From the NCBI GenBank assembly GCA_016183565.1, contig JACPEJ010000001.1, positions 358,479 to 422,478 on the forward strand: a stretch of DNA of 64,000 nt, read 5' to 3'. The notes under the pieces are model-generated. The model did not search any database and had not been told where the DNA came from. It was given only the letters and a program-made list of their open reading frames with translations. Positions 3,758 through 39,699 of this stretch are shown in pieces (positions within the stretch are counted from its first letter, which is position 1; each line of letters opens with the position of its first letter). The translations under genes and the position numbers were made by a program. The stretch is from Candidatus Blackburnbacteria bacterium. GTDB taxonomy: Bacteria > Patescibacteriota > Microgenomatia > UBA8517 > UBA10165.

Positions 3758-3812
3758 TTTCTTTGCCCCTTTTTCTTAATTGAATGTATAATCGTAGTAG
3801 TAGAGTTGCTAC

Positions 3813-5549: not shown

Positions 5550-5563
5550 TTCTTCTTGCTTTA

Positions 5564-8903: not shown

Positions 8904-10570
8904 AAATGAAATACATCCTTATTGTAATAGTTCTTCTTGGTTCAGTTTTTAGGTTGTGGGGTCTTTCCGAGAATCCTCCTCACTTGACGAGTGACGAAGC
9001 GGCGCTTGGCTATAACGCTTATTCTATTTTAAAAACTGGGCGGGATGAGCACGGTGAATTATTCCCAATAGTTTTTAAATCATTTGGGGACTGGAAACCG
9101 GGGCTTTATGTGTATCTTACAGTACCGTTTGTAGCGACCCTTGGTTTAACAGAACTTGCAGTAAGATTACCAGCGGCTATAGCTGGTGTCTCGGCAATAG
9201 TTCTTCTGTTTTTGATAACACACCAACTTTTTGATAACAAAAAGGTTGCTCTTTTTGCAAGTTTCTTTTTAGCTATTTCTCCTTGGCATATACAGTTTTC
9301 GCGGGGGGCATGGGAGGCTGGTATTGCTTTAACACTTACCCTTTTAGGAATTTACTTTTTCCTTCTAGTGGTTAAGGGCAGACCACGCATGCTTATTGTT
9401 GCGGGTTTATTTTTTGCCTTAACCCTTTGGACATATCAGGGTGCAAAGCTTGCAACTGCCGTAGTGGGGCTTGGACTTTTGATCTGTTTTTGGAAGGAAC
9501 TCTCGAAAGTTTCGCTAAAGATTTTAGGCAAAAGTTTAGCAATTGGTTTTTTGGTTGCCTTACCAGTTTTGGTGGGTTTTTGGCAGGGGAAAACAGGTAG
9601 GCTTGAGGTTTATAGTATTTTTTCGTACAGACGGCCTGAGGATTATGTGCAAGCTATTCTTGGCCAAGAACGTGTGAGCCGTGATTCTTGGCAATATATT
9701 CTTTACCACTCCGAATCTCTAAATTTTGTACGGGGCATATTGGGCAGGTGGTTTAATTACTATTCAGGACGATTTTTGTTTTTCGATGGTGATTGGACTA
9801 ATCCTCGTCATGCTGTCCCTAATTCAGGGAATTTATTGATAATAGATAGTATAATGCTCGTCCTTGGTCTCTTTGCCTTGTCACGGGTAGGTGCAAAGAA
9901 GGAAGCGCTTTTTGTTTGGTTTTGGATTATTTTTGCTCCATTGCCAGCAGCTTTGTCTCGAGACTCGGTTCATGCTATACGTACGTTAAATATGGTAATT
10001 CCGCTAACAATTTTATTGGCGTTGGGTGCAAATGCTGTCTGGGATCAAAGAAAGAGAGTTGGGAAATTGCTGCCTGTGTTGTTGGTAGTTTTCAGTGGGA
10101 TCTATATAGCAAACTATGTGTATTATCTTGATCAATACTGGATTCATGGGCCAAAGAGAAATTCCAAATATTGGCAGTATGGTTATAAGCAGATGGTTGA
10201 GAAACTCACTCCACTTCAACAAAAATATGATGAGATAGTTGTTATTCAGGATTATACGCAACCGTATATATTTTTCCTTTTCTACCAAAAGTACGATCCT
10301 GTAAAGTATCAAGGAATGGTCAGTCAAGTTTATATGCCTAACAAATATGGGGATGTTGGTCTTGTTTCGGGATTGGATAATATTACGTTTAGGGATATAA
10401 ACTGGCAAGATGATCGTGGTATGGTTGGGAAACTTTTTGTTGTAGATCCGATTCGTGTTCCTATTGTGGATTCAAGTAGCCCGGCGGAATTTAAATTAGT
10501 TGATCAGGTGAATTATTTAAATGGAGATGTGGCATTTCGTATTTTAGAAATCCTTGGGGAAAAGAGATAA
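8900..10570 (+). CDS. PMT/ArnT-like GT-C membrane glycosyltransferase, tandem paralog 3
   Basis: Motifs 'LTSDEAALGYNAYSILKTGRDEHGELFPIVFKSFGDWKPGLYVY', 'IFAPLPAALSRDSVHAIR', and the C-terminal 'YGYKQMVEKL..YDEIVVIQDYTQPYIFFLFYQKYDPVKY'. ATGA overlap with the upstream gene. Confidence 0.65.
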   Translation: MKMKYILIVIVLLGSVFRLWGLSENPPHLTSDEAALGYNAYSILKTGRDEHGELFPIVFKSFGDWKPGLYVYLTVPFVATLGLTELAVRLPAAIAGVSAIVLLFLITHQLFDNKKVALFASFFLAISPWHIQFSRGAWEAGIALTLTLLGIYFFLLVVKGRPRMLIVAGLFFALTLWTYQGAKLATAVVGLGLLICFWKELSKVSLKILGKSLAIGFLVALPVLVGFWQGKTGRLEVYSIFSYRRPEDYVQAILGQERVSRDSWQYILYHSESLNFVRGILGRWFNYYSGRFLFFDGDWTNPRHAVPNSGNLLIIDSIMLVLGLFALSRVGAKKEALFVWFWIIFAPLPAALSRDSVHAIRTLNMVIPLTILLALGANAVWDQRKRVGKLLPVLLVVFSGIYIANYVYYLDQYWIHGPKRNSKYWQYGYKQMVEKLTPLQQKYDEIVVIQDYTQPYIFFLFYQKYDPVKYQGMVSQVYMPNKYGDVGLVSGLDNITFRDINWQDDRGMVGKLFVVDPIRVPIVDSSSPAEFKLVDQVNYLNGDVAFRILEILGEKR

Positions 10571-10588
10571 ATTAGAATTTAAAAACAA

Positions 10589-12277
10589 ATGAGAATTTGT
10601 CTTCAACTATATATGAAACGTTTAATTTGGCTAATTATAATTCTTGCTGCAATACTGCGTTTTTATCGTTTGGATGTTTTGCCTGCGTTGAATGCTGATG
10701 AGGCAGCGATAGGATATAATAGTTATTCACTTATTAAAACAGGTAATGATGAGCATGGGAACTTATGGCCAGTTCATTTTCAGTCTTTTAATGACTATAA
10801 ACCGGGATTGTATTTTTACTTGGTTTTACCTTTTGTCGCGTTTTTTGGTTTGAATGAGTGGGCAGTAAGAATACCTGGGGCTTTTCTTGGGGTTTCTACG
10901 GTTTTTGTAGTTTGGCTTCTTGTGAAAGAGTTGTTTCCAGATAGAAAGTGGCTGCCAGAGTTATCAGCATTTTTTCTTACTATTTCTCCTTGGCATATTC
11001 ATTTTTCTCGAGGGGGATGGGAAGTGAATGTGGCGACATTTTTTATAACCGTGGGGGTTTGGGGATTTATTAAAGGGGTTAGAGATAACAGATGGTTTTG
11101 GCTTTCGAGTTTAGCTTTTGTTGCCTCACTGTATACTTATCATACTGCGAGGATTGTTGTTCCATTATTGATATTGGGTTTTTTGTTTATTTTTAAAAAA
11201 GCTCTTTTTTGGGATAGTAAGGATGCTGTTTTTAAATTCTTGAAAGTTGGTGTACCCAAGCATTTTTTCTTGAGTGTTGTGGTAGGGGTATTGTTTTTAG
11301 TGCCTTTAGTAAGAGGTCTTTTAGGACCGGCAGGTGTTTCTCGTGTTGCGGGTGTTGGGCTTTTTGCTGATACTGGTCCTTTTTGGCTAACAAATCAGCA
11401 ACGTGGGGAACATGAAGATTTTCAGGGTAAATTTGCTTTACTTTTACACAATAAACCAATCAACTATGGTATTGCTTTTTTGGAAAATTATGCTGGGCAT
11501 TTTTGGGGAGAATTTCTTTTCTTGTCAGGTGATGAAATTCAGCGAAACAAGGTTCCAGAAATTGGCCAAATGTACTTGTTTGATCTTTTGTTTTTGGCTC
11601 TGGGTTTAATAGTTATTGCAAGAAGTCCTAAAAACTGGGGAGTTGTAATCTTGTGGATTATGGTTGCTCCTGTTGCAGCGGCCCTTACGTTTCAGTCCCC
11701 CCATGCCTTAAGAGCTGAGAATATGGTAGTCCCTTTGACGATGATTAGTGCGTATGGTGGATATTGGTTATGGGGGAAGTGCAGACCCTCGGACAGAGGG
11801 AAGTTAGGCAGGTTAGGGAAGTTATGTGAGATACTGCTTGTAGTTTGGGTATTATGGGATTTTTCTCGATATTTACACCAGTATTATTTTCATATGGCGA
11901 AGACTTATGATTACTCTTCCCAGTATGGAATGAAGGAATTAGTACAATATATTACTCACAATAATAGCGAGAATAGGAGAGTGGTGGTAACTAATAGGTA
12001 TGATCAGCCGTATATTCTTTTCTTGTTCTATTTAAAATATCCGCCGGAGCAGTTTCAAAAGGAGCATGTTTTGACCCCAAGAGATAAATTTGGTTTTTCC
12101 ACAGTGGAGGGGTTTGGGAATTACACTTTTCGAGAGATTGGAAATTGGGATGAGATAAGGCGAGATTATCCGGGTGCTTTAATAGCTGGGACAGAGGACG
12201 AGATCCCGGGTGGAAATATACTTAGCACTATTACCTTTCCAAGTGGGAGAACGGTGTTTAAGATTGTAGCTAACTAG
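10589..12277 (+). CDS. PMT/ArnT-like GT-C membrane glycosyltransferase, tandem paralog 4
   Basis: Motifs 'LNADEAAIGYNSYSLIKTGNDEHGNLWPVHFQSFNDYKPGLYFY', 'IMVAPVAAALTFQSPHALR', and the C-terminal 'QYGMKELVQYI..RRVVVTNRYDQPYILFLFYLKYPPEQF'. Confidence 0.65.
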   Translation: MRICLQLYMKRLIWLIIILAAILRFYRLDVLPALNADEAAIGYNSYSLIKTGNDEHGNLWPVHFQSFNDYKPGLYFYLVLPFVAFFGLNEWAVRIPGAFLGVSTVFVVWLLVKELFPDRKWLPELSAFFLTISPWHIHFSRGGWEVNVATFFITVGVWGFIKGVRDNRWFWLSSLAFVASLYTYHTARIVVPLLILGFLFIFKKALFWDSKDAVFKFLKVGVPKHFFLSVVVGVLFLVPLVRGLLGPAGVSRVAGVGLFADTGPFWLTNQQRGEHEDFQGKFALLLHNKPINYGIAFLENYAGHFWGEFLFLSGDEIQRNKVPEIGQMYLFDLLFLALGLIVIARSPKNWGVVILWIMVAPVAAALTFQSPHALRAENMVVPLTMISAYGGYWLWGKCRPSDRGKLGRLGKLCEILLVVWVLWDFSRYLHQYYFHMAKTYDYSSQYGMKELVQYITHNNSENRRVVVTNRYDQPYILFLFYLKYPPEQFQKEHVLTPRDKFGFSTVEGFGNYTFREIGNWDEIRRDYPGALIAGTEDEIPGGNILSTITFPSGRTVFKIVAN

Positions 12278-12279
12278 AT

Positions 12280-13155
12280 ATGAAAAAAAGTCGAGCGAAG
12301 ATATCAGTAGTTTTAGCAACATTCAATGAAGAAAAAAACATAGGTGTTTGTCTTGAATCGATTCGACAACTGGCAGATGAGATAGTAGTGGTTGATGGTT
12401 CTTCAACTGATAGAACAAGAGAGATAGCTAAGTCATATGGCGCTCATGTTATAAAAGTAAAGAACTATCCTATTTTTCATATTAATAAACAGAGGGCGTT
12501 AGAGAGTGCAACTAGTGAGTGGATACTTCAGCTTGATGCTGATGAACGTGTGACAAAAGAACTGGCAGACGAAATATTGAAGGTAGTGAATATGAGTAAT
12601 GATGAGATAGAGGCTTATCAGAAACAGTTAGAGAATCGAGCACTATTTTTAAGACATCAGCAAATACTTACAGAGAGAGATGGTACTATTGGTGCAAAAG
12701 ACGGAGAATATGCAGCGTTTTTCCTTCCACGGTTGAATTATTTTCTTGGTGGTTACTTAAGACATGGAGGGACTTATCCTGATGGGGTGATTAGGTTGGT
12801 TAAGCGGGGGAAAGCACATTTTCCTGCGAAGAGTGTTCATGAGCAGATTGTTGTTGATGGTAAGGTTGGTTGGCTAGGGAACGATCTTTTACATTTGGAT
12901 TCCCCGAATTTTAAACGATATTTAGAGAGAAACAGTCGTTACGTAGACTTAATTAGAGATGAAATGAAGCAAGAAAAAGTAGGTAAGAACTTTCTTCAGT
13001 TTGTAAATTACTTTTTAGTTAAACCGTTTGGGTGGTTTTTTCTGACGCAGTTTAGACATAAGGGAATTTTGGATGGTTACCGGGGAGTTGTTTTCTCGTT
13101 TTTTTCTGCCCTGAGATTCCCTAGGGCATATTGGAGGTACATAAAGGAAAGTTAA
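12280..13155 (+). CDS. GT2-family (GT-A fold) glycosyltransferase
   Basis: 'ISVVLATFNEEKNIGVCLESI...EIVVVDGSSTDRTREIA...LQLDADE' is the classic GT2 signature with DxD. Confidence 0.7.
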   Translation: MKKSRAKISVVLATFNEEKNIGVCLESIRQLADEIVVVDGSSTDRTREIAKSYGAHVIKVKNYPIFHINKQRALESATSEWILQLDADERVTKELADEILKVVNMSNDEIEAYQKQLENRALFLRHQQILTERDGTIGAKDGEYAAFFLPRLNYFLGGYLRHGGTYPDGVIRLVKRGKAHFPAKSVHEQIVVDGKVGWLGNDLLHLDSPNFKRYLERNSRYVDLIRDEMKQEKVGKNFLQFVNYFLVKPFGWFFLTQFRHKGILDGYRGVVFSFFSALRFPRAYWRYIKES

Positions 13156-13171
13156 AAATGAAAAGTCAAAA

Positions 13172-14209
13172 ATGAAAGTTTTTATTGACGAACAAGTGTT
13201 AAATATCAGACACACGATTCGGGGTATTGGGGTGTATACTAGAAATCTTGTTGATGCTTTAAAAAAGCAGAAAGACATAGTTTTAGTTTCTGACGGGAGA
13301 GCGGCAGATATAATCCACTATCCATATTTTGACTTGTTTTTTAGTACTTTAAAAGTTCAGGGTGGGGAAAAGACTATAGTTACTATCTACGATACCATTC
13401 CGCTTATTTATCCGCAACATTATCCATCGGGAATTAAAGGAAAATTAAACTTTATTAGGCAAAAGAAAGCACTTCAGAAGATAGATGCTGTAGTTACAAT
13501 ATCGGAGACATCTAAGAAGGATATTGTACGATTTTTAGATGTACCGCAAGAAAAGATCTATACGGTTTATCTAGCACCTGGTGCAATTTTCAGGAAAGTG
13601 GAAGGTGGAAAGTGGAAAGTGGAAGTTGCAAAACGTTATGCTCTTCCAGAGCGTTTTGTCCTATATGTTGGTGATGTAAACTACAATAAAAATTTGAGTG
13701 GATTGGCCCAAGCATGTGTGCTGGCAAAGCTGCCTTTGGTTATTGTAGGTAAGCAAGCGGCCACTGCTGAATTTGATAAGCAACACCTGGAAAACAGACC
13801 GTTTGCCTCTTTCTTAGAGAAGTATGGAGGTAATTCGAATATTAGGCGTTTGGGTTTTGTGCCAGATGAGGATTTGGTGTTAATTTATAATTTGGCGACA
13901 GTGTATTGCCAACCATCTTTTTACGAAGGGTTTGGGCTTCCTGTTTTAGAGGCGATGGCTTGTGGTTGTCCTGTTGTTGCTTCTCGGACACAAGCGTTGG
14001 TAGAAATATGTGGTGACAGTGCGCTTTTTGCTGATCCGAAGGATCCTCGGGATATTGCTGTTAAGATTAAAACTGTGTCTGGAAACAGAAAATTGGCCAG
14101 TTCATTAGGTAGAAGTGGTATTGAGAAAGTAAAGCAGTTCTCATGGGAGAAACTTGCTTATGAAACAACTAAAGTATATACAACGATTCTTAAACAAAAT
14201 AGACACTAA
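13172..14209 (+). CDS. GT4-family (GT-B fold, group 1) glycosyltransferase
   Basis: Carries the C-terminal 'EGFGLPVLEAMACGCPVVASRT' E-x7-E-type GT4 motif. The N-terminal domain reads 'GIGVYTRNLVDAL'. Confidence 0.75.
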   Translation: MKVFIDEQVLNIRHTIRGIGVYTRNLVDALKKQKDIVLVSDGRAADIIHYPYFDLFFSTLKVQGGEKTIVTIYDTIPLIYPQHYPSGIKGKLNFIRQKKALQKIDAVVTISETSKKDIVRFLDVPQEKIYTVYLAPGAIFRKVEGGKWKVEVAKRYALPERFVLYVGDVNYNKNLSGLAQACVLAKLPLVIVGKQAATAEFDKQHLENRPFASFLEKYGGNSNIRRLGFVPDEDLVLIYNLATVYCQPSFYEGFGLPVLEAMACGCPVVASRTQALVEICGDSALFADPKDPRDIAVKIKTVSGNRKLASSLGRSGIEKVKQFSWEKLAYETTKVYTTILKQNRH

Positions 14210-15347
14210 ACAAATTTTACTACTCTTTTTGGTTTGGAGAGTTTGGACTTTTGTCTTTGCCTTACTTGGGATAATTTTAGTTCCTTTATATAGTCGGGAC
14301 TTTTTTGGGGGTGGATTAGACCACTACCTTGAAAATCCTGTGTTTTGGAGTTGGGCTAATTTTGATGGTGAGCATTATATTTCCTTAGTCCAACATGGTT
14401 ATCAGAAATTAACTCATTCCTTTTTCCCGTTTTATCCGTTGGTTGTGAGGATTGCTTCTACGGAAAGTATTTCTAATATAACTGCGGTTGGAGTTTTGAT
14501 TTCAAGCGTATCTTTGTTTGTGGGTATTTGTTTATTTTGGAGACTTGTATGTGTTGATTTTTCACCAAAGGTGGCTTTGTATTCGCTTGTTTCTCTTCTT
14601 GTTTTTCCAACGTCTTTCTTTTTTGGGGCTTTTTATACAGAGTCTTTGTTTTTCTTGCTTGTTGTTGGTTCTTTTTTCGCTGCCAGGAAGTCTAACTGGT
14701 TCTTGAGTGGGATCTTGGGTGCTCTAGCGAGTTCTACGCGAATAATTGGGATTTTTCTTTTGCCGGCTCTTATTGTTGAGTGGTTATTACAAGGTAGAGA
14801 CGAGTCTTTAAAAAAGTCTCTAGGTAAGAGAATATTGCAGTTTCTGTGTATCTTCCTTGTACCTTTGGGCTTGGGGATATATATGTTTTATTTGTATAGA
14901 ACTACGGGTAATTGGCTGAGTTTTTATACGGACCTTTCCCCTTTTGGGGAGCAACGCGGGGGTGGTACAATCGTATTTCTTCCTCAAGTGTTGTGGCGAT
15001 ATGTAAGGATGATTTTTACTGTTGATAAGACAAGTTTGTTCTATCTAACACTTCTGATGGAGTTTTTGACTGGTATCGGTGTATTGTTTCTGGGGGTGTG
15101 GGGGTGGATGAAAAACGTGCGTTTGTCGTACTTGGTTTTTATGGGGTTGGGTTATATACTTCCTACTTTGACGGGAAGTTTTAGTTCCCTTCCGAGATAT
15201 GTTTTGGTATTGTTTCCTTTGTTTATTATCATGGGCATGTTTTTGTCTAAACAGAGAATGTTTGTGCGTATGGCAATTCTTTCTCTGTTGACTGTTTTAT
15301 TGATAATTGAAACAATGCTCTTTGTGCGCGGTTATTGGGTAGGATAG
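14160..15347 (+). CDS. PIG-V/Gpi18-like (Mannosyl_trans2, GT76-type) GT-C membrane mannosyltransferase-like protein
   Basis: 'WANFDGEHYISLVQHGYQKLTHSFFPFYPLVVR' matches the W-D..H/Y-F..IA..GY...AFFPLYP hallmark of GPI mannosyltransferase 2-like proteins. About 10 TM helices. ATG 14160 is given as the start; the ORF track begins at an upstream TTG (14154). Either way it overlaps the end of the GT4 gene by about 50 nt. Confidence 0.5.
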   Translation: MKQLKYIQRFLNKIDTKQILLLFLVWRVWTFVFALLGIILVPLYSRDFFGGGLDHYLENPVFWSWANFDGEHYISLVQHGYQKLTHSFFPFYPLVVRIASTESISNITAVGVLISSVSLFVGICLFWRLVCVDFSPKVALYSLVSLLVFPTSFFFGAFYTESLFFLLVVGSFFAARKSNWFLSGILGALASSTRIIGIFLLPALIVEWLLQGRDESLKKSLGKRILQFLCIFLVPLGLGIYMFYLYRTTGNWLSFYTDLSPFGEQRGGGTIVFLPQVLWRYVRMIFTVDKTSLFYLTLLMEFLTGIGVLFLGVWGWMKNVRLSYLVFMGLGYILPTLTGSFSSLPRYVLVLFPLFIIMGMFLSKQRMFVRMAILSLLTVLLIIETMLFVRGYWVG

Positions 15348-15348
15348 T

Positions 15349-16611
15349 ATGAAATTTACAAAGATATTATTCCTGTATTTTTTGTCTTTGGCCGGAAGCT
15401 CGTTTTTTGCGGGAAGTATTATTATGGTGCTTGGTACAAATTTTCATAACCTTGGCCAGTTGGTCTACCACTTTCTGGCCGGCAGACTTTTAGGCAAAGT
15501 TTTCTATGGAGACCTGGCGGCCCTAATTTCTATTTTTGGTCTTCTTGCAATAATTCAACAAGCTTTTGGTTTAACAATTATTAAGTTTGTTGCATCAGCA
15601 AAAAGTCCCGAGGAAGCTAATAACTTTACCAAGTGGGTGTGGTTCTGGAGTATTTGGGTAGGTGTTATAGTTTTTGTCTTGCTTTTGTTTTCCTCACCAT
15701 TTATAGTCCAATTTTTAAACATTAGTCAACCGCAGGTAATTTATATATTTATTCCCGTCGTTCTTGTTGGCTTTATCTCAAATACTGGTAGAGCGCTTTT
15801 ACAAGGTTTTACTAGATTTACCCAGTTTGTTGTTAGTATGGTTGCAGAAGTAGGAGCAAAGATTGTTGCTATGGTACTTCTTGTATATCTCGGCTACTCA
15901 CTTTTTGGGGCAGTAGCAGCACTTCCTGTGGGAGCTGTGGTTGGATTTGTTATTGTCTGGTTGGGGTTGAGGAAAAACCTTAAAGGACCAAGAGCCAAGA
16001 TGCCCAATCTCTCCCCTCTTTTTGCATATTCATTTCCCGTGTTTATTCAAAGTATTGCTCTTACTTCAATGTATTCATCAGATATTTTGCTTGCTAAGCA
16101 CTTTTTTACCGCAGAGCAGGCAGGACTTTATGCTGCCTTGGCAAAACTTGGAACGATTGCATTCTTCAGCTCTTCTCCGATAACGAGTGTGATGTTTCCA
16201 ATAATTGCGAGAAATCATACGCATGGTCAGCCCTATCACAGAATTTTTTACCTTAGTGTCGCTTTAGTTACACTGATTTCATTAGCCGTAATAATCTCCT
16301 ATATATTCCTTTCTGGTTTTATTATCGGGATTCTTTTTGGCAAAGATTTTGTTGAAGGCGCCCCGATTTTATGGTGGTTTAGTCTTTATATGTTCCTATT
16401 GGGGGTCGGAATGCTTTTTGTTCATTTTTATTTGTCGATTGGTAAAACAAAAGTCGTTTGGTTGTTTGCCGCAGCAGCACTTACTCAAATAGTTCTGATT
16501 CTGGTGTTTCACGCCACCTTATTAAGTGTTATTCAAATGTCAATAATTGCAGCAGCTTTACTCGTTCTGGGTCTTCTTCTATACTTTCCTTACCACCACA
16601 GACAAAGATGA
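15349..16611 (+). CDS. Wzx-like polysaccharide / lipid-linked oligosaccharide flippase (MOP superfamily)
   Basis: 420 aa with 12-14 TM helices and the typical 'polysaccharide biosynthesis protein' topology. Short positively charged loops ('GLRKNLKGPRAKMPN') lie between two 6-TM halves. Overlapping boundaries on both sides. Confidence 0.55.
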   Translation: MKFTKILFLYFLSLAGSSFFAGSIIMVLGTNFHNLGQLVYHFLAGRLLGKVFYGDLAALISIFGLLAIIQQAFGLTIIKFVASAKSPEEANNFTKWVWFWSIWVGVIVFVLLLFSSPFIVQFLNISQPQVIYIFIPVVLVGFISNTGRALLQGFTRFTQFVVSMVAEVGAKIVAMVLLVYLGYSLFGAVAALPVGAVVGFVIVWLGLRKNLKGPRAKMPNLSPLFAYSFPVFIQSIALTSMYSSDILLAKHFFTAEQAGLYAALAKLGTIAFFSSSPITSVMFPIIARNHTHGQPYHRIFYLSVALVTLISLAVIISYIFLSGFIIGILFGKDFVEGAPILWWFSLYMFLLGVGMLFVHFYLSIGKTKVVWLFAAAALTQIVLILVFHATLLSVIQMSIIAAALLVLGLLLYFPYHHRQR

Positions 16612-33253: not shown

Positions 33254-34462
33254 ATGGAGAAAACAGCACTTCAAGATAAACTTAGTTCTATGAATGTAGT
33301 GATCGCGTCTCATGTGTTTGCATCAGGACCTTCTTTAGACTTGGAGGAATATTTAAAAGATAAAGTGAGATACCTTCTTTATATTGGGCACCCTTTTGCT
33401 GAAAGGACTGATGTGCGTTCTTTTTGTAGAGAGTACCGAAAGGGAACTTTGGTGAGGAAACACGAAGCATATCCAGTAAGATTATCGAGTTTTTTTGTTT
33501 ATTTTAAGGAGGCGTTTTATACAATGTTTTGGCTTCTGTTTACTAGGGAAAAAATTGACTTGTATATAGGCTCTGATAATTATATGGCGTATTTGGGTTT
33601 ATTGGCGAAAAAGACTGGAAGGGTTAGGAAGGTGGTTTTATATACGATTGATTTTGTTCCAAAGAGATTTAAAAATCCAGCGTTGAATTGGCTTTATCAT
33701 TTTTTTGATAGAGAATGCTTGAATAAATGCGATATGGTATGGAATGTTTCTTCTGCGATAACTCAAGCGCGAGAGGAGTATTACAGAGGTCTGAGAAGGT
33801 GTGCAAAACAGATTGTAGTGCCTTTAGGGATTTGGCACGACCGTATATCGAAGTTACCTTTTACCAAAAGGAGTGAGAATAAGATAATATTTCTTGGTCA
33901 TTTATTAGAAAAACAGGGATTGTCTTTAGTCATAGAAGCTTTGCCTTTGATAGCAAGAAAGTTGCCGAGTTTGAAACTTGTTATTATTGGTACAGGTCCG
34001 TTTGAGAGGCACCTGAAGTTGTTGGTAGCCAAACTGAGAGTTGGTAGACGTGTTGAGTTTAGAGGATATGTAGAAAATCACCGAGATGTAGAAGAGGAGC
34101 TTTCAGACAGTACGATTGCAGTGGCTATGTATAAGCCAGATCCGGAATCCTTTACTTATTTTGCTGATCCTGCGAAAATTAAAAATTATTTATCTGCTGG
34201 TTTACCGGTGATTCTTACTGATGTCCCGCCAATAGCAGAGGAAATTGCCCAAAAACGCTGTGCGTTGATTGCAAAATATGATGTTTATGATTTTGCTGAT
34301 AAGGTTGATGCTTTGTTAACTGATCGAAGAATGCTTAGCGAGTACAGTAAAAATGCTATAAAATTTGCAGAACAGTTTGATTGGGATAAGGTTTTTACAG
34401 AGGCTTTAGAAAAAACCCTTCAGCAACCTGCTTCATCATTGCTTCTTAAGCAAAAAAATTAA
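33254..34462 (+). CDS. GT4-family glycosyltransferase (member of a three-paralog family with 37640-38824 and 55454-56592)
   Basis: 'LYTIDFVPKRFKNPALNWLYHFFDRECLNKCDMVWNVSSAITQARE' and 'KIIFLGHLLEKQGLSLVIEALPLIARKLPSLKLVIIGTGP'. ATG at 33254 is preceded by GGAGAG; the track starts at TTG 33236. Confidence 0.65.
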   Translation: MEKTALQDKLSSMNVVIASHVFASGPSLDLEEYLKDKVRYLLYIGHPFAERTDVRSFCREYRKGTLVRKHEAYPVRLSSFFVYFKEAFYTMFWLLFTREKIDLYIGSDNYMAYLGLLAKKTGRVRKVVLYTIDFVPKRFKNPALNWLYHFFDRECLNKCDMVWNVSSAITQAREEYYRGLRRCAKQIVVPLGIWHDRISKLPFTKRSENKIIFLGHLLEKQGLSLVIEALPLIARKLPSLKLVIIGTGPFERHLKLLVAKLRVGRRVEFRGYVENHRDVEEELSDSTIAVAMYKPDPESFTYFADPAKIKNYLSAGLPVILTDVPPIAEEIAQKRCALIAKYDVYDFADKVDALLTDRRMLSEYSKNAIKFAEQFDWDKVFTEALEKTLQQPASSLLLKQKN

Positions 34463-35152
34463 ATTGTTGTGATTCTTATAGACTTTCTTATACCTTGCCT
34501 TAACCAACAACCTTTCCATGGCTTCATCTGTCAGTATATCAGCCTCGACACAAACTATCGTAGGTCTAAATTTCCCCCAATCGTTACTTTTTAAAACCTC
34601 AAGATCGTATCCCTCAACATCCACACTTAAAAAATCAATTTTTTTGTTTTTGCAATATTCTTTGAATATTTCACTTAGTCTTGAAACTTTTATTCTTGAA
34701 GTCTCAACTAGCTTAAATCCTTCCTTTTTATAATTCTCTGCGGCTTTTTTCGAAAAAGTTGAAAGTGTTTCCGGTTCAAACTTAAAATACTCAAGTTTTC
34801 CACTTTTGTTTGCAATCCCGAGGTTTAAGTTTGTGTCTCTGGGACGCGAGTTATAGAATTTCTTAATTTTTCGAGGATCTGGTTCAATATTTATTCCTGT
34901 CCAACCGCGTGCATAAAACCTCTTTGTGTTGCTGAGTCTTGTAGGATTGTATGCGCCCACATCAACGTAAAACCCAGATTTTCTATTTCCCAACAAGTTA
35001 TCGATCAAAATATCCTCTCCGTTTTGACTAAACGATTTTTGAAGAAACCCTCTTTTTAACATCAGAATCTCTCCGATTAAGTACTGAAATAGTCTCATTG
35101 GGCCGTACAGTTTTAAATAGTTGTAAGATTTTAGAATCATCGAGATTTTCAA
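34436..35152 (-). CDS. FkbM-family methyltransferase
   Basis: 'GFYVDVGAYNPTRLSNTKRFYARGWTGINIEPDP' and 'IDFLSVDVEGYDLEVL' are FkbM hallmarks. TTG start at 35152 with an internal ATG at 35140. Its 3' end overlaps the convergent GT4 gene by 27 nt. Confidence 0.7.
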   Translation of the reverse strand: MKISMILKSYNYLKLYGPMRLFQYLIGEILMLKRGFLQKSFSQNGEDILIDNLLGNRKSGFYVDVGAYNPTRLSNTKRFYARGWTGINIEPDPRKIKKFYNSRPRDTNLNLGIANKSGKLEYFKFEPETLSTFSKKAAENYKKEGFKLVETSRIKVSRLSEIFKEYCKNKKIDFLSVDVEGYDLEVLKSNDWGKFRPTIVCVEADILTDEAMERLLVKARYKKVYKNHNNLIFLLKKQ

Positions 35153-36222
35153 TAATGCGTATGCAACTGATAGTCTCTACATATTTGGCTAATTAGTTGG
35201 GGTCCTTCGAAGATAATACCTGTTATTAGTTGGATTAGGTCTGCGCCAGCGGAAAATTTCTCCAGGGCGTCTTTTGTATTAAACACGCCTCCGCAGCCAA
35301 TGATTGCGACATTGCCCCCAAACTTTTTACGTGTATGGGAAATGAGGTGGTTGGCACCTTTTGTAGTCGGTTTTCCACTGAAATTGCCTTTGAGGTTAGC
35401 GACATTTAAAATTTCGTTCTGATCGAAAGCCCGATTTTCTCTGTTTTTGACTAAGTTAGAAAATATGAAGCCACTGATTCCCTGGGTTAAAGCTGCCTCT
35501 ACTAACAAGTCGCTTTTTTTAGCGTCAATCTCATTGGGCATTTTTACAAAAATGGGCTTTTCCATACTAAGAGAGGTAACCTCTTTGACGAGATTTTTGA
35601 AATTTTGTACCTCGATAAACGACTCGGTCATGTTGGTATTTGGACAGCTTATATTTAGTTCGAAATATTTAATGTATTTTTTCTTTTTAAAGATATCAAA
35701 AGAAAATGTATAATCATCAATAGCTTTGTTGATTGTGTTGACTTTTGGACTGTTGGTACTGCCTATGCTTATTCCCACTGTGTGGCCCTGCAGGTCTTTT
35801 TTATCGAGCCTTTGAGCTACTGCAATGGCGCCTTCTGATTTGAAGCCCTTGTTAACTAATATTGACCTTGATTTAGGGAGTCTTACCAATCTTGGCTTAG
35901 GATTTCCTTCATAAGGTTTTGCTGTAACTGTACCAACTGTATTAAATCCAAAGCCTATGTACTTTAAGACTTTTGCCAGATGTCCATCGTAATCAAAACC
36001 TGCTGATAAACCGGTCGGGTTTTCAAAATCTATGCCAAGTACTTTCCTCTTTAAGGCTGGGTCTCTAAAGGCAAAGAGCCAAGATAGTAGACTGTTTTGG
36101 TTTTCTAGATTCTCTCCGAGCTTTGTGATTGTATCGTGTACAATTTCGGCATCTATCTGAAAGGCAATTGGTCTAAAGAGGTTTTTGTATAAAAGGGTTG
36201 CTATGTGACTTTTGTAATTCAT
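35149..36222 (-). CDS. pyrD: dihydroorotate dehydrogenase (class 2, quinone-type)-like flavoenzyme
   Basis: 'GIDFENPTGLSAGFDYDGH', 'NTVGTVTAKPYEGNPKPRLVRLPKSRSILVNKGFKSEG', 'ISCPNT' and 'IIGCGGVFNTKDALEKFSAGADLIQL'. ATG at 36222 overlaps the upstream TGA (ATGA). Confidence 0.65.
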   Translation of the reverse strand: MNYKSHIATLLYKNLFRPIAFQIDAEIVHDTITKLGENLENQNSLLSWLFAFRDPALKRKVLGIDFENPTGLSAGFDYDGHLAKVLKYIGFGFNTVGTVTAKPYEGNPKPRLVRLPKSRSILVNKGFKSEGAIAVAQRLDKKDLQGHTVGISIGSTNSPKVNTINKAIDDYTFSFDIFKKKKYIKYFELNISCPNTNMTESFIEVQNFKNLVKEVTSLSMEKPIFVKMPNEIDAKKSDLLVEAALTQGISGFIFSNLVKNRENRAFDQNEILNVANLKGNFSGKPTTKGANHLISHTRKKFGGNVAIIGCGGVFNTKDALEKFSAGADLIQLITGIIFEGPQLISQICRDYQLHTHY

Positions 36223-37628
36223 GGTTGAAATTTCTTGAGGACATTTTTCCCGACTCTTGCAGCATTGGCCATTATTGTTAATGTTGGTGGTTTTGCGGGC
36301 AATACTTTCCATGTTGAGGAATCGGCAATGTAAATTCTTTTGGCTTGGTGTAACCTCCCTTTTGAATCTGTTGACAGTTTACCTTGCTTAGATTGAAAAG
36401 AAACCCCGCCAGCGTAATGTGAAGTGACATTGCTTGTGATCGTTTTCATTGGAAGTAGCCCAAAAGACTGAATTTTTCTGTAGATCTTTTTCAGTTCCTC
36501 TTTGTGCTTTTTAATCTCCCTATCTGTTGTATGTGATGATACTTCTAAAACACCTATATCGCACTTTTCCTTTTTTAATCTACAGAAACTCTTATTTGAT
36601 TTAAATGTTGGAAAACGTACGTCTACTATTACCAGGTATGGTGCGATTATTGAAAAAAACAAAGAAGCAAGTGGCTTTGGTAAAGGAATATATTGAAGAG
36701 CCAAATCTTGCGCAAGAGGGTTACATCTATAAAACTGGACGAAAAAAGAATTTAAGTCTTGGTCAAGATCATTGCAAGTTAGTGAAACTTGGCCGAGGCT
36801 AGCTATATTATTCTGGCGTCTTTTTAGTAATGTTTGGGGGTGTAAGCATACAAGCATTGTGTGCCCTTTTGTCAAGAAAGGAACCTGGTAATTATAAAGC
36901 CTAAAGCTTTGCAAGAGAATTCTTGTGGTGTTAATGGCACCTGCTGCCAAAATTAAATAACGTGATTTAATATACGATTTTTCTTGACTCTCAATCGAAA
37001 TACTCTCGATTTCTACGTGTTTGTTTTTATCTTTTACTTTCAGAACCAATTGTTTGGGTATATAGGTAAAGTTTTTGTACTTTTTTAAATCTTCGATCAC
37101 ACTCTTAGTACGGTAAGGATATGCAATAGGTAGTCTATAAACTTGATTCTTTGCTTTTTTCAAGATTAGTTGTCCATGTAAATCAAGCTGTGGTTTAGTT
37201 TTAAGGTTTATGCGCTTTGCGATCTCTTTATATTCTTTTTGAATCTCTAGAGCTGGAAGACCAGTCTCAGCGAGCTCTGAATCTGTGAAATAGTCACAAA
37301 TGCCGTGCCAAATTTCTGACAAGCCACCCTTTGCCAAACTTTGGATGATCTCAATATTGCTTTGAACTTTCAGAAGTTGGTAAGTTTTGGTAAAAACATA
37401 ACCACTTTTTATTAAGAGATCATACGGGTTGCTTTTGTTGTGTAGTTTTTTGTTTATAGGTTGGTTATCTTGCTTTTTGCTGTCTAACCCGCCGTCTATA
37501 ATTGCAACTCGCAATCCTGCTTCAACTAGAGGGTATGCTGCGTGTACTCCCGCCGGGCCTGAACCCACAACGATCACATCATGGAGAGTGTTTGGCTTAG
37601 CTGTAGAATGGCCCGAATTGTGTAGCAT
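36219..37628 (-). CDS. GMC-family FAD-dependent oxidoreductase
   Basis: N-terminal 'VIVVGSGPAGVHAAYPLVEAGLRVAIIDGG' is the GxGxxG FAD site. The C-terminal 'HYAGGVSF...RIYIADSSTWKVLPAKPPTLTIMANAARVGKNV' is the GMC substrate-binding and active-site His region. Confidence 0.6.
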   Translation of the reverse strand: MLHNSGHSTAKPNTLHDVIVVGSGPAGVHAAYPLVEAGLRVAIIDGGLDSKKQDNQPINKKLHNKSNPYDLLIKSGYVFTKTYQLLKVQSNIEIIQSLAKGGLSEIWHGICDYFTDSELAETGLPALEIQKEYKEIAKRINLKTKPQLDLHGQLILKKAKNQVYRLPIAYPYRTKSVIEDLKKYKNFTYIPKQLVLKVKDKNKHVEIESISIESQEKSYIKSRYLILAAGAINTTRILLQSFRLYNYQVPFLTKGHTMLVCLHPQTLLKRRQNNIASLGQVSLTCNDLDQDLNSFFVQFYRCNPLAQDLALQYIPLPKPLASLFFSIIAPYLVIVDVRFPTFKSNKSFCRLKKEKCDIGVLEVSSHTTDREIKKHKEELKKIYRKIQSFGLLPMKTITSNVTSHYAGGVSFQSKQGKLSTDSKGRLHQAKRIYIADSSTWKVLPAKPPTLTIMANAARVGKNVLKKFQP

Positions 37629-37639
37629 TTTAATATTAT

Positions 37640-38824
37640 CTAGCCTAGCAGGCGAGATATATTTTTACTAAAAATAATATTCCAGTCAAATTGTTTTACA
37701 TACTGCAAAGCGTTCTTCCTATATTCTTTCCATAACTTACGGTTAGATAAAAGTTTAATTACAGCATCTGCGAATGATTCGGTACTAAAATTAACGACCA
37801 TGCTACACCTTGCTTTCTGGATTTCTTTGGCAATAGAAGGTGCCTTCGTTGTTATAACTGGTATGCCAAGGGAAAGATACTCCTTAATTTTAGCGGGATC
37901 AGCGTTTTTGGCAGGGGGGTTGTTTTTTGTGCGGTATGGGGCAAGTGCAATTGCTGAATTGGAAATAATATTCAATGCAGTTTTGTTGCTTTCAACAAAT
38001 CCATGAAATTTAATCATTTGATTTACTTGAAGTTTCTGCGCTAGCTGTTTTAGATATTCCAACTGTTCTCCTCCACCAACAATTTCCAGGGTAACGTCAG
38101 GAATGGTTTTTGCAATGATTGGCAGAGCTTTAATTGCCAAATCTACTCCTCGAAAAGCTACAAGGTGTCCAATAAATACGAGTTTTGTTTTTTTTATTCT
38201 ATTCAACGGGATTATATTTCTTTGGTTTAACCATACACCTATTGGAACTGTAAACTGTCTGGAATGACCTGTTTCCGGTATACCGTTTTCTGCTCTAAAC
38301 CTTTTCATAAATGGTGAGACGTTCCAAGTTTCATCACAGTTCGCAACGCATAATTTGTCAAGTTTGTGATATATCCAATTGATAAATGTATTGCTAAACC
38401 TCTCTGGGTACAAATCAATTGTGTAATATATGACCTTATTTACTTTCCCAAGTTTTTTGAGCACCAAGCCCGCTAGAGCATTTAGGTTGTTAATGCCAAA
38501 ATATAAATCGTAAGTATTTCTTGATTTGAGTATCCAATATGTTGTGTAGAGAAAATCTTTAATATAGTGGCCTGACTCAGGAAGTATGACCCGAGGTGCT
38601 TTTGAAGTTTTTACAGGAGAGTTTCCATTGTAATGTTCAACTTCAGAGTGGAGCTTGTAACTTTCTTTAAGCAAAAGAAGTGGATGCTTAATATACAATA
38701 GAGACTTGCAGTTGTGTGTTAGCAGAAACCTTTTTAAGTCATCTCCTGGTATACAAGGCATTATTGATCTGTGTGTAACGATAGCTATATTCTTGCTTCC
38801 CAGGTTTATCTTTGGTCTGCCCAT
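37640..38824 (-). CDS. GT4-family glycosyltransferase (paralog family member)
   Basis: 'YYTIDLYPERFSNTFINWIYHKLDKLCVANCDETWNVSPFM' and 'KLVFIGHLVAFRGVDLAIKALPIIAKTIPDVTLEIVGGG'. There is a 29-bp divergent gap to the 38854 gene. Confidence 0.65.
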   Translation of the reverse strand: MGRPKINLGSKNIAIVTHRSIMPCIPGDDLKRFLLTHNCKSLLYIKHPLLLLKESYKLHSEVEHYNGNSPVKTSKAPRVILPESGHYIKDFLYTTYWILKSRNTYDLYFGINNLNALAGLVLKKLGKVNKVIYYTIDLYPERFSNTFINWIYHKLDKLCVANCDETWNVSPFMKRFRAENGIPETGHSRQFTVPIGVWLNQRNIIPLNRIKKTKLVFIGHLVAFRGVDLAIKALPIIAKTIPDVTLEIVGGGEQLEYLKQLAQKLQVNQMIKFHGFVESNKTALNIISNSAIALAPYRTKNNPPAKNADPAKIKEYLSLGIPVITTKAPSIAKEIQKARCSMVVNFSTESFADAVIKLLSNRKLWKEYRKNALQYVKQFDWNIIFSKNISRLLG

Positions 38825-38853
38825 CTGTTAATTTTACCTAATATGCCGACAAA

Positions 38854-39699
38854 ATGTTAGAATTTGTTAATCGTACTAGCATGAACAGAATTAAAGTGTC
38901 GGTTTTGATGCCTGTCTACAATGCAGAAAAGTATGTAGATTTTGCAATCCAAAGCATACTTGGACAAACTTTTCGCAATTTCGAGTTTGTCATTGTCGAT
39001 GACTACTCGACTGACAAAAGCTGGGAGATTATTAAAAAATATGCCAAACTGGACAAGCGAATCATTGTACTTAGAAATAGAGAAAATTTGAGAACTACAA
39101 AGAGCCTTAATCGGGGATTGAAACTTGCCAGGGGTAAGTATGTTGCTCGTATGGACGCTGACGATTGGAGTTATCCTGATAGATTAGAAAAGCAATTTCA
39201 GTTTATGGAACAACATCTAATGGTTGGAGTTAGTGGAGGAACTATTGAGATCTGTGACAGAAACCTGAAAGTTTTGAATCTTCGGAGATATCCATTAAAT
39301 GATCAAGCGGCCAGAAAAATAATTTTTAGATACAGCCCTTTTGCACATCCTGTCACAATATGGAGAACAGAGGTTATAAAGAGGGTGGGTGGTTACAATG
39401 AAAATATACCATTAAGCCAAGATTACGAGTTGTACTTCAGGATAGGAAAAGTATCAAAATTTGCTAACCTTCCGGATGTGTTGTTAAAGTTGCGAACGCA
39501 TAATAATTCAAGTTCGATAGTGAGAGGAAAGTATCAAGAACAGTATGCGCTTTACTCGAGAATTAAGGCATTTTTAGAATATGGGTATGACATGACAACT
39601 GCTGATAAATTTTATTCCTTTTTTCAAATGTTGAGCATTGTAATAGTTCCACCAAAAATAAAGTTTTGGCTATTCAATTTCTTGAGGAGAGCAAGGTAA
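38854..39699 (+). CDS. GT2-family glycosyltransferase
   Basis: 'VSVLMPVYNAEKYVDFAIQSILGQTFRNFEFVIVDDYSTDKSWEII' and 'VARMDADD'. Confidence 0.7.
   Translation: MLEFVNRTSMNRIKVSVLMPVYNAEKYVDFAIQSILGQTFRNFEFVIVDDYSTDKSWEIIKKYAKLDKRIIVLRNRENLRTTKSLNRGLKLARGKYVARMDADDWSYPDRLEKQFQFMEQHLMVGVSGGTIEICDRNLKVLNLRRYPLNDQAARKIIFRYSPFAHPVTIWRTEVIKRVGGYNENIPLSQDYELYFRIGKVSKFANLPDVLLKLRTHNNSSSIVRGKYQEQYALYSRIKAFLEYGYDMTTADKFYSFFQMLSIVIVPPKIKFWLFNFLRRAR

Follow-up and report, generated by a model that had tools for sequence, protein, structure and literature searches.

A Dihydroorotate Dehydrogenase-like Gene in a Glycan Gene Cluster of Candidatus Blackburnbacteria: Candidate Passenger from a Remodelled Flavoenzyme Family

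What is a homologue of dihydroorotate dehydrogenase (DHODH) doing amongst the genes of a glycan cluster? The question is raised by a stretch of 64,000 nucleotides from the genome of Candidatus Blackburnbacteria (a group of Microgenomates within the Candidate Phyla Radiation, CPR, also called Patescibacteria), which I will refer to in its entirety as the window. A gene for a homologue of class 2 DHODH lies there between genes for an oxidoreductase of the glucose-methanol-choline (GMC) superfamily and for a methyltransferase of the FkbM family. The initial annotation of the window offered two explanations, that the three genes constitute a redox/methylation module or that the DHODH-like gene is the organism's real pyrD, placed in the cluster by chance. 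I will argue, with somewhat more confidence than doubt, for a different reading: that a glycosyltransferase of family GT4, the GMC-like protein and the methyltransferase belong to a glycan pathway, while the DHODH-like protein is a co-expressed passenger, a member of a family, found across the CPR, of class-2-type flavoenzymes with a remodelled active site, whose role would lie in membrane quinone or flavin redox rather than in sugar tailoring or in respiration-coupled synthesis of uridine monophosphate (UMP). The argument draws on gene content, residues, contexts, fusions and fold, and from these I infer what can be said of substrates and of the direction of electron flow.

The DHODH-like gene is part of a block of four genes on the minus strand that spans positions 34436-38824. 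The first, for the GT4 glycosyltransferase (37640-38824; PF00534, E 2.7e-23), ends 11 nt before the start of the second, for the GMC-like protein (36219-37628; 469 amino acids, by weak Pfam match and by fold a flavin adenine dinucleotide (FAD) oxidoreductase like the pyranose and C-glycoside oxidases). The third encodes the DHODH-like protein (35149-36222; 357 amino acids, matching PF01180, NF003652 and TIGR01036), which belongs to a CPR subfamily that I will call Tyr/Cys, or Y/C, and the fourth the FkbM methyltransferase (34436-35140; 234 amino acids from the ATG at 35140, matching PF05050 and TIGR01444). Three co-directional minus-strand genes had been described at the outset, and the open reading frames (ORFs) bear this out (34436-35152; 35149-36222, within a longer ORF that reaches to 36312; and 36219-37628). 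The three families to which they had been assigned hold as well, that of the GMC-like protein being weak by sequence and clear by fold, and so does the setting, a large glycan island with several genes for glycosyltransferases of families GT2 and GT4, a Wzx-type flippase, sugar-nucleotide genes, an AsnB-like amidotransferase and class I methyltransferases. The DHODH-like protein matches, at 100% identity, a protein recorded at NCBI for this taxon, and its gene is carried on contigs of up to 686 kb.

The linkage of the three genes may be considered first from the side of the GMC-like gene. Thirteen distinct loci with this gene were compared (window/L001, L011, L012, L013, P0164 locus, L014-L019, L115-L117). 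All of them are set in glycan clusters, in the company of GT2, GT4 and GT10 glycosyltransferases, epimerases of the short-chain dehydrogenase/reductase (SDR) type (GDP-mannose-dehydratase-like or other), FdtA-like isomerases and methyltransferases, and at several loci SDR genes adjoin the GMC-like gene itself (an epimerisation by oxidase and SDR in the manner of DprE1/DprE2 was considered for this protein and is not put forward here). A DHODH-like neighbour is found at two of the thirteen, the window and L011, where the DHODH-like proteins are 74% identical to each other and the GMC-like proteins 60%. A methyltransferase, in comparison, lies within about two genes of the GMC-like gene at eight (the window, L011, L017, L115, L117, L014, L018 and L116). 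What lies between the two varies. In L017, from another Blackburnbacteria genome, the stop codon of the GMC-like gene overlaps the FkbM start codon by ATGA, with nothing in between; in L117 the GMC-like gene is followed by two FkbM genes and the slot is empty; and L115, which has the closest GMC-like protein available (78% identity) in a syntenic cluster, has no DHODH-like gene. Since the slot differs amongst the window and L011, L115, L117 and L017, the recurring unit appears to be that of the GMC-like gene and a methyltransferase, with a variable position between them. In L115 the slot is occupied (6361-6795) by a hydrophobic membrane ORF of 144 amino acids with no Pfam match. It is not a decayed remnant of a DHODH-like gene: tblastn found no similarity between them.

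Viewed from the side of the DHODH-like gene, the linkage disappears altogether. Neither a GMC-like nor an FkbM homologue was found within 6 kb of the DHODH-like gene at any of 80 metagenome loci. The presence of such a gene in a glycosylation cluster is therefore as unexpected as it had at first seemed, but the three-gene module proposed to account for it fails on conservation, being shared by the window and L011 and lacking its DHODH-like component at the 11 other GMC-like loci. I would suppose instead that the functional unit is the GMC-like flavoprotein together with the methyltransferase. The former would most likely oxidise a sugar hydroxyl (at C2 or C3) to a keto group, be the sugar part of a glycan or linked to a lipid or nucleotide, and the latter would most likely methylate the same glycan, with the DHODH-like gene having arrived in this lineage in the variable slot between them, where it may simply be co-expressed.

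The junctions between the genes might be taken as evidence to the contrary. Positions 36219-36222 read ATGA on the minus strand, a 4-nt overlap between the stop codon of the GMC-like gene and the start codon of the DHODH-like gene, and the ATG at 36222 is backed by 20 homologues. A start at 36312, in the longer ORF, was dropped, as the homologues all begin at the Met of 36222. The initial annotation had called this overlap correctly, together with a second ATGA at 35149-35152 that does not exist: the bases there are TTGA, the TGA stop of the DHODH-like gene with a possible TTG start. Four FkbM homologues have as their first residue the Met encoded here by ATG 35140, in a conserved sequence MIxKxYxYLxxYGP, and for this reason the methyltransferase gene most likely starts 8 nt past the DHODH-like stop, with no overlap. 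The same conservation at the N-terminus led me to drop both TTG 35152 and the start assigned by the public gene call, at window position 35062. As for the overlap that does exist, L011 retains both it and the order of the genes, but overlaps of 4 nt are common in this compact genome (8 of the 36 co-directional neighbour pairs in the window have one), so the ATGA cannot be taken as proof of a functional link. A DHODH-like homologue elsewhere shows the same kind of overlap with glmS. The overlap shows tight packing and, probably, co-transcription, and it provides no evidence of a specific functional link.

The DHODH-like protein of the window might have been expected to show signs of a special role, if it had one. 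It is 74% identical to the copy embedded in the cluster of L011 and 71% identical to a stand-alone copy from Woesebacteria, and a simple distance tree, made by neighbour joining, groups it with both. The GC content of its gene matches that of the window. Because the protein is equally similar to stand-alone and to embedded copies, it appears to be one of the CPR family's ordinary orthologues, relocated to the operon, and not a specialised paralogue, and no sign of neofunctionalisation was seen, in that the protein is not extra-divergent from its stand-alone orthologues.

These observations bear on an improbable alternative, that the three enzymes do form a module, acting on one sugar or polyprenyl carrier. 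The GMC-like protein might, for example, oxidise an alcohol or sugar and the DHODH-like protein reduce the C=C bond of the resulting enone or enal, with methylation to follow. The chemistry would suit the DHODH family, which carries out redox reactions at a C=C bond beside a carbonyl, and the strongly conserved N-terminal domain of the family, with its tunnel for lipid or quinone, would suit a polyprenyl substrate, as would the abundance in the island of GT-C enzymes, users of polyprenyl-phosphate sugars. The retention in L011 of the ATGA coupling and gene order, at 60-74% identity, may also be counted in its favor. It is difficult to reconcile, however, with a linkage that only two of the 13 GMC-like loci show, and none of the 80 DHODH-like loci, with the different gene in the slot of L115, the closest syntenic cluster, with 4-nt overlaps that are generic in the genome, and with a DHODH-like protein no more divergent than those that stand alone.

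The nature of the GMC-like protein matters to the same alternative, and its sequence goes only part of the way towards establishing it. Pfam finds GMC_oxred_C in the last 56 residues only (25.9 bits, against a cutoff of 24.6), along with an N-terminal Rossmann motif for FAD, and does not report GMC_oxred_N. Sixty homologues (50-79% identity) share three elements: the invariant dinucleotide-binding motif GSGPAG (the N-terminal GxGxxG; 37548-37565, minus strand), the motif TSHYAGG, within which H404, Y405 and G408 are invariant (the codon of His404 is at 36417-36419, minus strand), and a C-terminal segment TLTIMANA. By its resemblance to the motif of GMC enzymes, His404 is the putative catalytic His. 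The N/H-P usually found downstream in GMC enzymes reads K-P-P here, so that the second catalytic His/Asn is unrecognizable. A search of PDB sequences with a profile of the protein reached only the Rossmann N-terminus (matching pyranose oxidase, FAD-GDH and fructose dehydrogenase), and for this reason a search by fold was needed.

An AlphaFold model, built from the alignment of the 60 homologues (pLDDT 88, pTM 0.89), was compared with known structures by Foldseek. The best matches were to the C-glycoside oxidase 7DVE (E 2.6e-23), to the bacterial pyranose 2-oxidases 7QVA, 7QF8 and 7QFD, and to DaCGO1 (8QVE), with E-values of about 1e-23, TM scores of 0.70-0.73 and sequence identities of 14-16%, followed by matches to fungal pyranose 2-oxidases, fructose and glucose dehydrogenases, and cholesterol oxidase. 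Model and matches together support a two-domain GMC fold, and since the best folds are those of sugar oxidases, the protein may be considered a divergent member of the sugar-oxidizing branch of the superfamily. That they are not the folds of lipid-alcohol oxidases is a further point against a module that works on a lipid carrier. The protein is similar in size (about 460-500 amino acids) to the C-glycoside 3-oxidase CarA (7DVE), to DaCGO1 and to the bacterial pyranose 2-oxidases, and like them has an N-terminal GxGxxG and a C-terminal motif containing a His. It differs from them in its low identity, its undetected GMC_oxred_N domain and the KPP in place of the second catalytic residue, and also in being restricted to Microgenomates and in a context, that of glycan clusters, which is biosynthetic rather than catabolic.

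That restriction rests on a search of one representative genome per species, in which close homologues of the GMC-like protein came only from Levybacteria, Blackburnbacteria and three metagenome-assembled genomes (MAGs) labelled "uncultured Gammaproteobacteria"; a protein search named one homologue from Daviesbacteria besides. The three MAGs (binchicken MAGs; L015, L016 and L018) have GMC-like proteins at 51-55% identity, in glycan clusters with GT10, epimerase and methyltransferase genes, and their label is probably wrong. The word-indexed protein search missed the exact protein of the window, giving 78-79% as its best identity even though identical copies are present on Logan contigs L001 and L002, and absence from that search is thus no evidence of absence.

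With both flavoproteins in view, one might imagine the GMC-like protein as an electron-transfer partner of the DHODH-like protein, the two forming a pair of FAD and flavin mononucleotide (FMN) proteins comparable to PyrK and PyrD of class 1B DHODH. The ATGA couples the gene of an FAD protein to that of an FMN protein, and a host that has neither a respiratory chain nor quinone synthesis would need some other acceptor. The distributions of the two proteins make the idea highly improbable: none of the 80 DHODH-like loci has a GMC-like neighbour, 11 of the 13 GMC-like loci have no DHODH-like gene, and the one protein is confined to glycan clusters of Microgenomates whereas the other is found across the CPR. 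Moreover, the GMC-like protein keeps the putative His motif of an enzyme that oxidizes its own substrate, as well as the fold of a sugar oxidase.

If the DHODH-like protein is a passenger, what kind of enzyme is it? It matches PF01180 (E 6.9e-56, 190 bits) and passes, marginally, the cutoffs of two equivalog models for quinone-dependent DHODH (NF003652, 280.7 against 267; TIGR01036, 215.7 against 200), while scoring below the cutoffs of eight other class 2 equivalog models. Its best sequence matches in PDB are all class 2 DHODHs, at about 35% identity and E-values of about 1e-40 to 1e-54. It has in common with class 2 PyrD/DHODH (1F76 from E. coli and 1D3G from human, and also 7UT5) the FMN-binding TIM barrel of PF01180, the motifs GGxSG and GxGG, and a two-helix N-terminal domain: residues 11-55 align to the helical domain of the bacterial class 2 enzymes, a domain strongly conserved in the family. 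No transmembrane segment is predicted. The architecture would accordingly be that of class 2, an FMN barrel with an N-terminal helical domain that forms a quinone tunnel, but with a remodelled active site in which a Cys would serve as acid/base.

Set beside PyrD, the protein keeps the His and Arg of the N-terminal quinone domain, most of the Asn residues and the Lys that binds FMN, and departs from it at the catalytic Ser, at Lys100/Lys66 and in the substrate loop. More than 6000 protein clusters match the DHODH-like query, the best 120 of them at 58-74% identity. Judging by the alignments, the residues of the quinone tunnel are kept, H29 (the equivalent of His56) being at least 90% conserved and R114 (Arg136) invariant, and so are those that bind the ring and FMN, N190, N195, N256 and K227 (Asn212, Asn217, Asn284 and Lys255), all invariant. 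At the position of the class 2 catalytic Ser (Ser215 in human, Ser175 in E. coli) stands Cys193, in the motif NISCPN (35638-35655, minus strand), and all 120 homologues and all 80 loci have a Cys there. Profile-to-PDB alignments set Tyr78, in GFDYDG (codon at 35989-35991, minus strand), against Lys100 of the human enzyme and Lys66 of that from E. coli; the residue in the 120 homologues and the metagenome loci is Y, W, N or H, in no case K. The substrate loop, LVNKGFK (35839-35859, minus strand), has its Asn displaced by one residue from the canonical N-x-x-G-F-N and a Lys in place of the second Asn (the loop of Asn145 in human). Further changes replace Thr285 by Leu and Tyr356 by Ile. The changes in the active site are shared by all 120 homologues and persist across metagenome loci down to 43% identity. 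The roles of these residues in canonical DHODH, including the contact of Lys100/Lys66 with FMN and the carboxylate of orotate, I take to be those seen in solved structures.

An exhaustive search of 1.84 billion representatives produced a graded series, from the canonical combination of Lys and Ser (K/S), through proteins with Lys and Cys (K/C) and the canonical loop (for example, one from Elusimicrobia) and K/C proteins with a loop V-[NYH]-Y-G-L-K, to the Y/C clade that contains the protein of the window. The proteins with the V-[NYH]-Y-G-L-K loop, together with Lys and Cys, form a sister group that I will call type B (P0258, P0261/P0392, P0265, P0283; P0266 was also noted). One cluster with this loop comes from an archaeon of the Woesearchaeota (DPANN), another lineage of ultra-small symbionts, and one K/C member of type B carries, as a fusion, the domain of a PAP2 lipid phosphatase.

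Does the change from Ser to Cys by itself argue against DHODH activity? Class II DHODs of the Cys type are known from anaerobic fungi (ArUra9, SjUra9 and DbUra9); they are independent of respiration, they complement a ura1 mutant, and ArUra9 reduces free FMN and FAD (PMC8520639). The CPR proteins are like them in class II architecture, in the Cys that replaces the catalytic Ser, and in having hosts that live without respiration. Since the fungal enzymes carry a Cys, a Cys alone is compatible with DHODH activity. The fungal hosts, however, have the full pyrimidine pathway, and the CPR family in addition lacks the Lys and has a shifted loop. On sequence grounds, then, the loss of the Lys and the shift of the Asn loop would go beyond the fungal precedent.

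The fungal enzymes nonetheless lend substance to the alternative that the protein is a genuine housekeeping DHODH, in the island by chance, whose acceptor (a flavin, a flavoprotein or scavenged quinone, for example) would lie outside respiration. I regard this as possible but doubtful. Besides the fungal case, it draws on the two equivalog cutoffs, on PDB matches that are all to class 2 DHODHs, on the retention of FMN Lys and most ring-binding Asn residues, on the gradual passage from K/S to K/C to Y/C, and on contexts of the gene elsewhere that mostly resemble those of housekeeping genes. Against it are a position for Lys100/Lys66 that is never Lys and the shift in the Asn loop that holds the carboxylate of the substrate, as well as considerations of pathway and host. 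No gene of the pyrimidine pathway was found among the scanned ORFs of the window, nor is any family of that pathway among the 25 commonest families of the 148 non-redundant genes that lie within two positions of a DHODH-like gene. The hosts are Microgenomates, which are reported to be without respiration and complete nucleotide synthesis (PMC7143001), or other CPR: the named taxa among the best 120 homologues are all CPR (Woesebacteria, Amesbacteria, Collierbacteria, Vogelbacteria, Paceibacterota and Saccharimonadia), and the family is spread over many CPR classes even though 93% of examined Patescibacteria genomes are without de novo nucleotide synthesis (bioRxiv 10.64898/2026.06.21.733656). 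A search of the literature on dihydroorotate or DHODH in CPR/Patescibacteria found nothing relevant. Of the original suggestion of a real pyrD placed by chance, the chance placement fits the evidence well, but the gene does not look like an ordinary pyrD, with its Ser replaced by Cys, its Lys by Tyr and its Asn loop shifted, with relatives fused to another redox protein (as described below), and with a phylum that mostly does without nucleotide synthesis.

The genes that do accompany the DHODH-like gene are of some help. The commonest families among the 148 neighbours are PNPOx_N (11) and adh_short (6), with others including IF3, thrS domains, L20 and the CCA-adding enzyme, and individual contexts include glmS, a GT4 gene with pyrG, infC-rplT-pheST, and greA/aspS with lon. 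In a set of 86 loci, the most frequent neighbour is an FMN split-barrel protein of the PNPOx_N type, of about 156 amino acids, encoded within 2.5 kb at 23 of them, either divergently from the DHODH-like gene or directly upstream (for example, L007 5111-5973, L046 1077-1556, L053 4305-6084, L056 1333-2525, L063, L068, L101 and L107). An SDR gene of family adh_short is near at 8 of the 86, often accompanying the PNPOx-like gene. The PNPOx-like protein may be a redox partner of the DHODH-like protein, or the two may be part of a small pathway; it could also be the acceptor that a housekeeping DHODH would need. The recurrence of SDRs has been counted in favor of the three-enzyme module, in that dolichol synthesis follows a similar logic of SDR and ene-reductase, and so have the links of the family to the envelope and to lipid carriers: the PAP2 fusion, neighbouring bacA and PAP2 genes, glmS and glycosyltransferases.

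The real lead of the analysis is a fusion. Of ten long representatives of the family, nine, all of the Y/C clade, carry at their N-terminus a domain of vitamin K epoxide reductase (VKOR; PF07884, E 1e-9 to 1e-26), and the tenth, of the K/C type, carries PAP2. A search with one fusion, P0252, returned as its best 120 matches proteins that in every case combine PF07884 with PF01180, in lengths of 501-559 amino acids, the named sources being Patescibacteria and Pacebacteria. The fusion of VKOR to a DHODH-like protein is therefore present in at least 120 protein clusters (the fusion proteins noted are P0245, P0248, P0251, P0252, P0254-P0256, P0259, P0260 and P0408-P0526). All 120 have a CxxC and at least four Cys residues, the VKOR domain showing a second Cys pair in addition to the CxxC, and 94 of the 120 have four predicted transmembrane segments. 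Amongst the 80 metagenome loci, VKOR is fused or adjacent at five, fused at L093, L101 and L107 and encoded by a separate gene at L095 (7775-8224) and L108 (2624-2968), and two of the loci with fusions also have PNPOx-like and SDR neighbours. In the tree, fused and unfused forms are interspersed within the same Tyr/Cys clade. The protein of the window is unfused, and no VKOR gene is present in the 64 kb. The literature search found no paper on such a fusion.

The fusion bears on the direction of electron flow. VKOR reduces quinone as it oxidizes thiols, and DHODH running forward also reduces quinone. A forward-running DHODH fused to VKOR would join two quinone reducers to no obvious purpose, a further difficulty for the proposal of a housekeeping enzyme. 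Because both partners would reduce quinone, the fusion suggests rather that the flavoenzyme re-oxidizes quinol or otherwise shares the quinone site. The topology may also be considered. The known fusion partner of bacterial (DsbB-like) VKOR is a thioredoxin-like domain in the periplasm, whereas the partner here is a DHODH-like flavoenzyme which would seem to be cytoplasmic. The N-terminus of bacterial VKOR is in the cytoplasm, and if that of the fusions is too, their DHODH-like domain would lie in the cytoplasm at the face of the membrane. With the bacterial VKORs the fused relatives of the window protein share an N-terminal VKOR with CxxC and about four transmembrane segments.

One can go further, into a conjecture that I put forward as tentative and more likely wrong than right: that the Cys-type, Lys-less DHODH-like proteins of CPR (and related ones of DPANN) are no enzymes of pyrimidine synthesis at all but quinol oxidizers running in reverse, which would take electrons from scavenged membrane quinone, reduced by VKOR as disulfide bonds form outside the cytoplasm, and pass them via FMN to a cytoplasmic acceptor, perhaps fumarate or another enoate, perhaps a PNPOx-like flavoprotein or O2. 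The copy in the window would then be paired with a VKOR encoded separately. If this were true, organisms without a respiratory chain would have a self-contained sink for the electrons that oxidative protein folding releases.

The reading that I favor, of a passenger with a role in membrane redox, asks for less. Since the partners of the family are VKOR fusions, PNPOx-like proteins and SDRs, in a phylum without respiration and pyrimidine synthesis, the DHODH-like protein would most likely be a flavoenzyme at the periphery of the membrane, with a flavin carrier or scavenged membrane quinone as its partner in electron exchange, and probably serves as an electron sink or source and not as a respiration-coupled step in the synthesis of UMP. 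Several observations weigh against it. Gene order and the ATGA between the GMC-like and DHODH-like genes have been kept in two lineages at 60-74% identity, which could reflect selection for co-expression. The family elsewhere is sometimes found near envelope genes (glmS, GT4, GT2, PAP2, bacA), and PAP2 is the fusion partner of one type B relative, so that a role linked to lipid carriers or to the envelope is possible. The protein passes two NCBI cutoffs for quinone-dependent DHODH and keeps the equivalents of Asn212, Asn217, Asn284, Lys255, His56 and Arg136, and true DHODH activity is possible from what these residues suggest. Finally, the GMC-like protein has KPP where the canonical second catalytic His/Asn would stand.

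The issue extends beyond one locus, as databases give thousands of CPR proteins the name "quinone-dependent dihydroorotate dehydrogenase", and metabolic reconstructions that count them as pyrD are affected. That annotation is probably misleading for the CPR family, because the Ser base and Lys100/Lys66 have been lost, because fusions to VKOR are frequent, and because the phylum is mostly without quinone synthesis, respiration and pyrimidine synthesis; the family as a whole is set apart from class 2 PyrD by its Cys for Ser, its Tyr for Lys, its V-N-K-G-F-K loop, its frequent VKOR fusions and the habits of its hosts. The VKOR fusions, and with them the neighbouring PNPOx-like and SDR genes, hint at a way for ultra-small symbionts to manage membrane redox and the formation of disulfides with no respiratory chain. 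As for the remainder of the block, a homologue of sugar oxidases together with a methyltransferase would be a recurring tailoring unit of surface glycans in Microgenomates, and keto- or methyl-sugars on the surface by which these cells attach to a host are candidate products of the pair.

The methyltransferase needs little comment. Its match to the FkbM family of S-adenosylmethionine-dependent enzymes is clear (PF05050, E 1.9e-25, 90.4 bits against 22.7; TIGR01444, 49.4 bits against 37.7), and glycan clusters commonly have genes of this family, often several each. The subgroup to which the window protein belongs differs from other FkbM proteins in the conserved N-terminal extension MIxKxYxYLxxYGP. 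A scan of 34000-39200 for promoters and terminators gave counts at the level of chance and so no indication of the boundaries of the operon.

Elsewhere in the window, positions 2201-12277 hold a tandem run of six ORFs of 518-578 amino acids each. Of these, four were scanned and matched polyprenyl-phosphate-sugar glycosyltransferases of the GT-C/PMT_2 type (2201-3757, 3813-5549, 7191-8903 and 10589-12277), a set of paralogues unusually large for a small genome. After the run, at 12280-16611, come GT2 and GT4 genes and the gene for a Wzx-like flippase. GC skew is positive in 30 of the 32 2-kb bins of the window, and the cumulative skew rises almost monotonically, independent of the strand of the local genes. 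Genomes of Microgenomates have been reported to show strong disparity in strand composition and unidirectional replication (PMC7143001), and the skew of the window fits that description.

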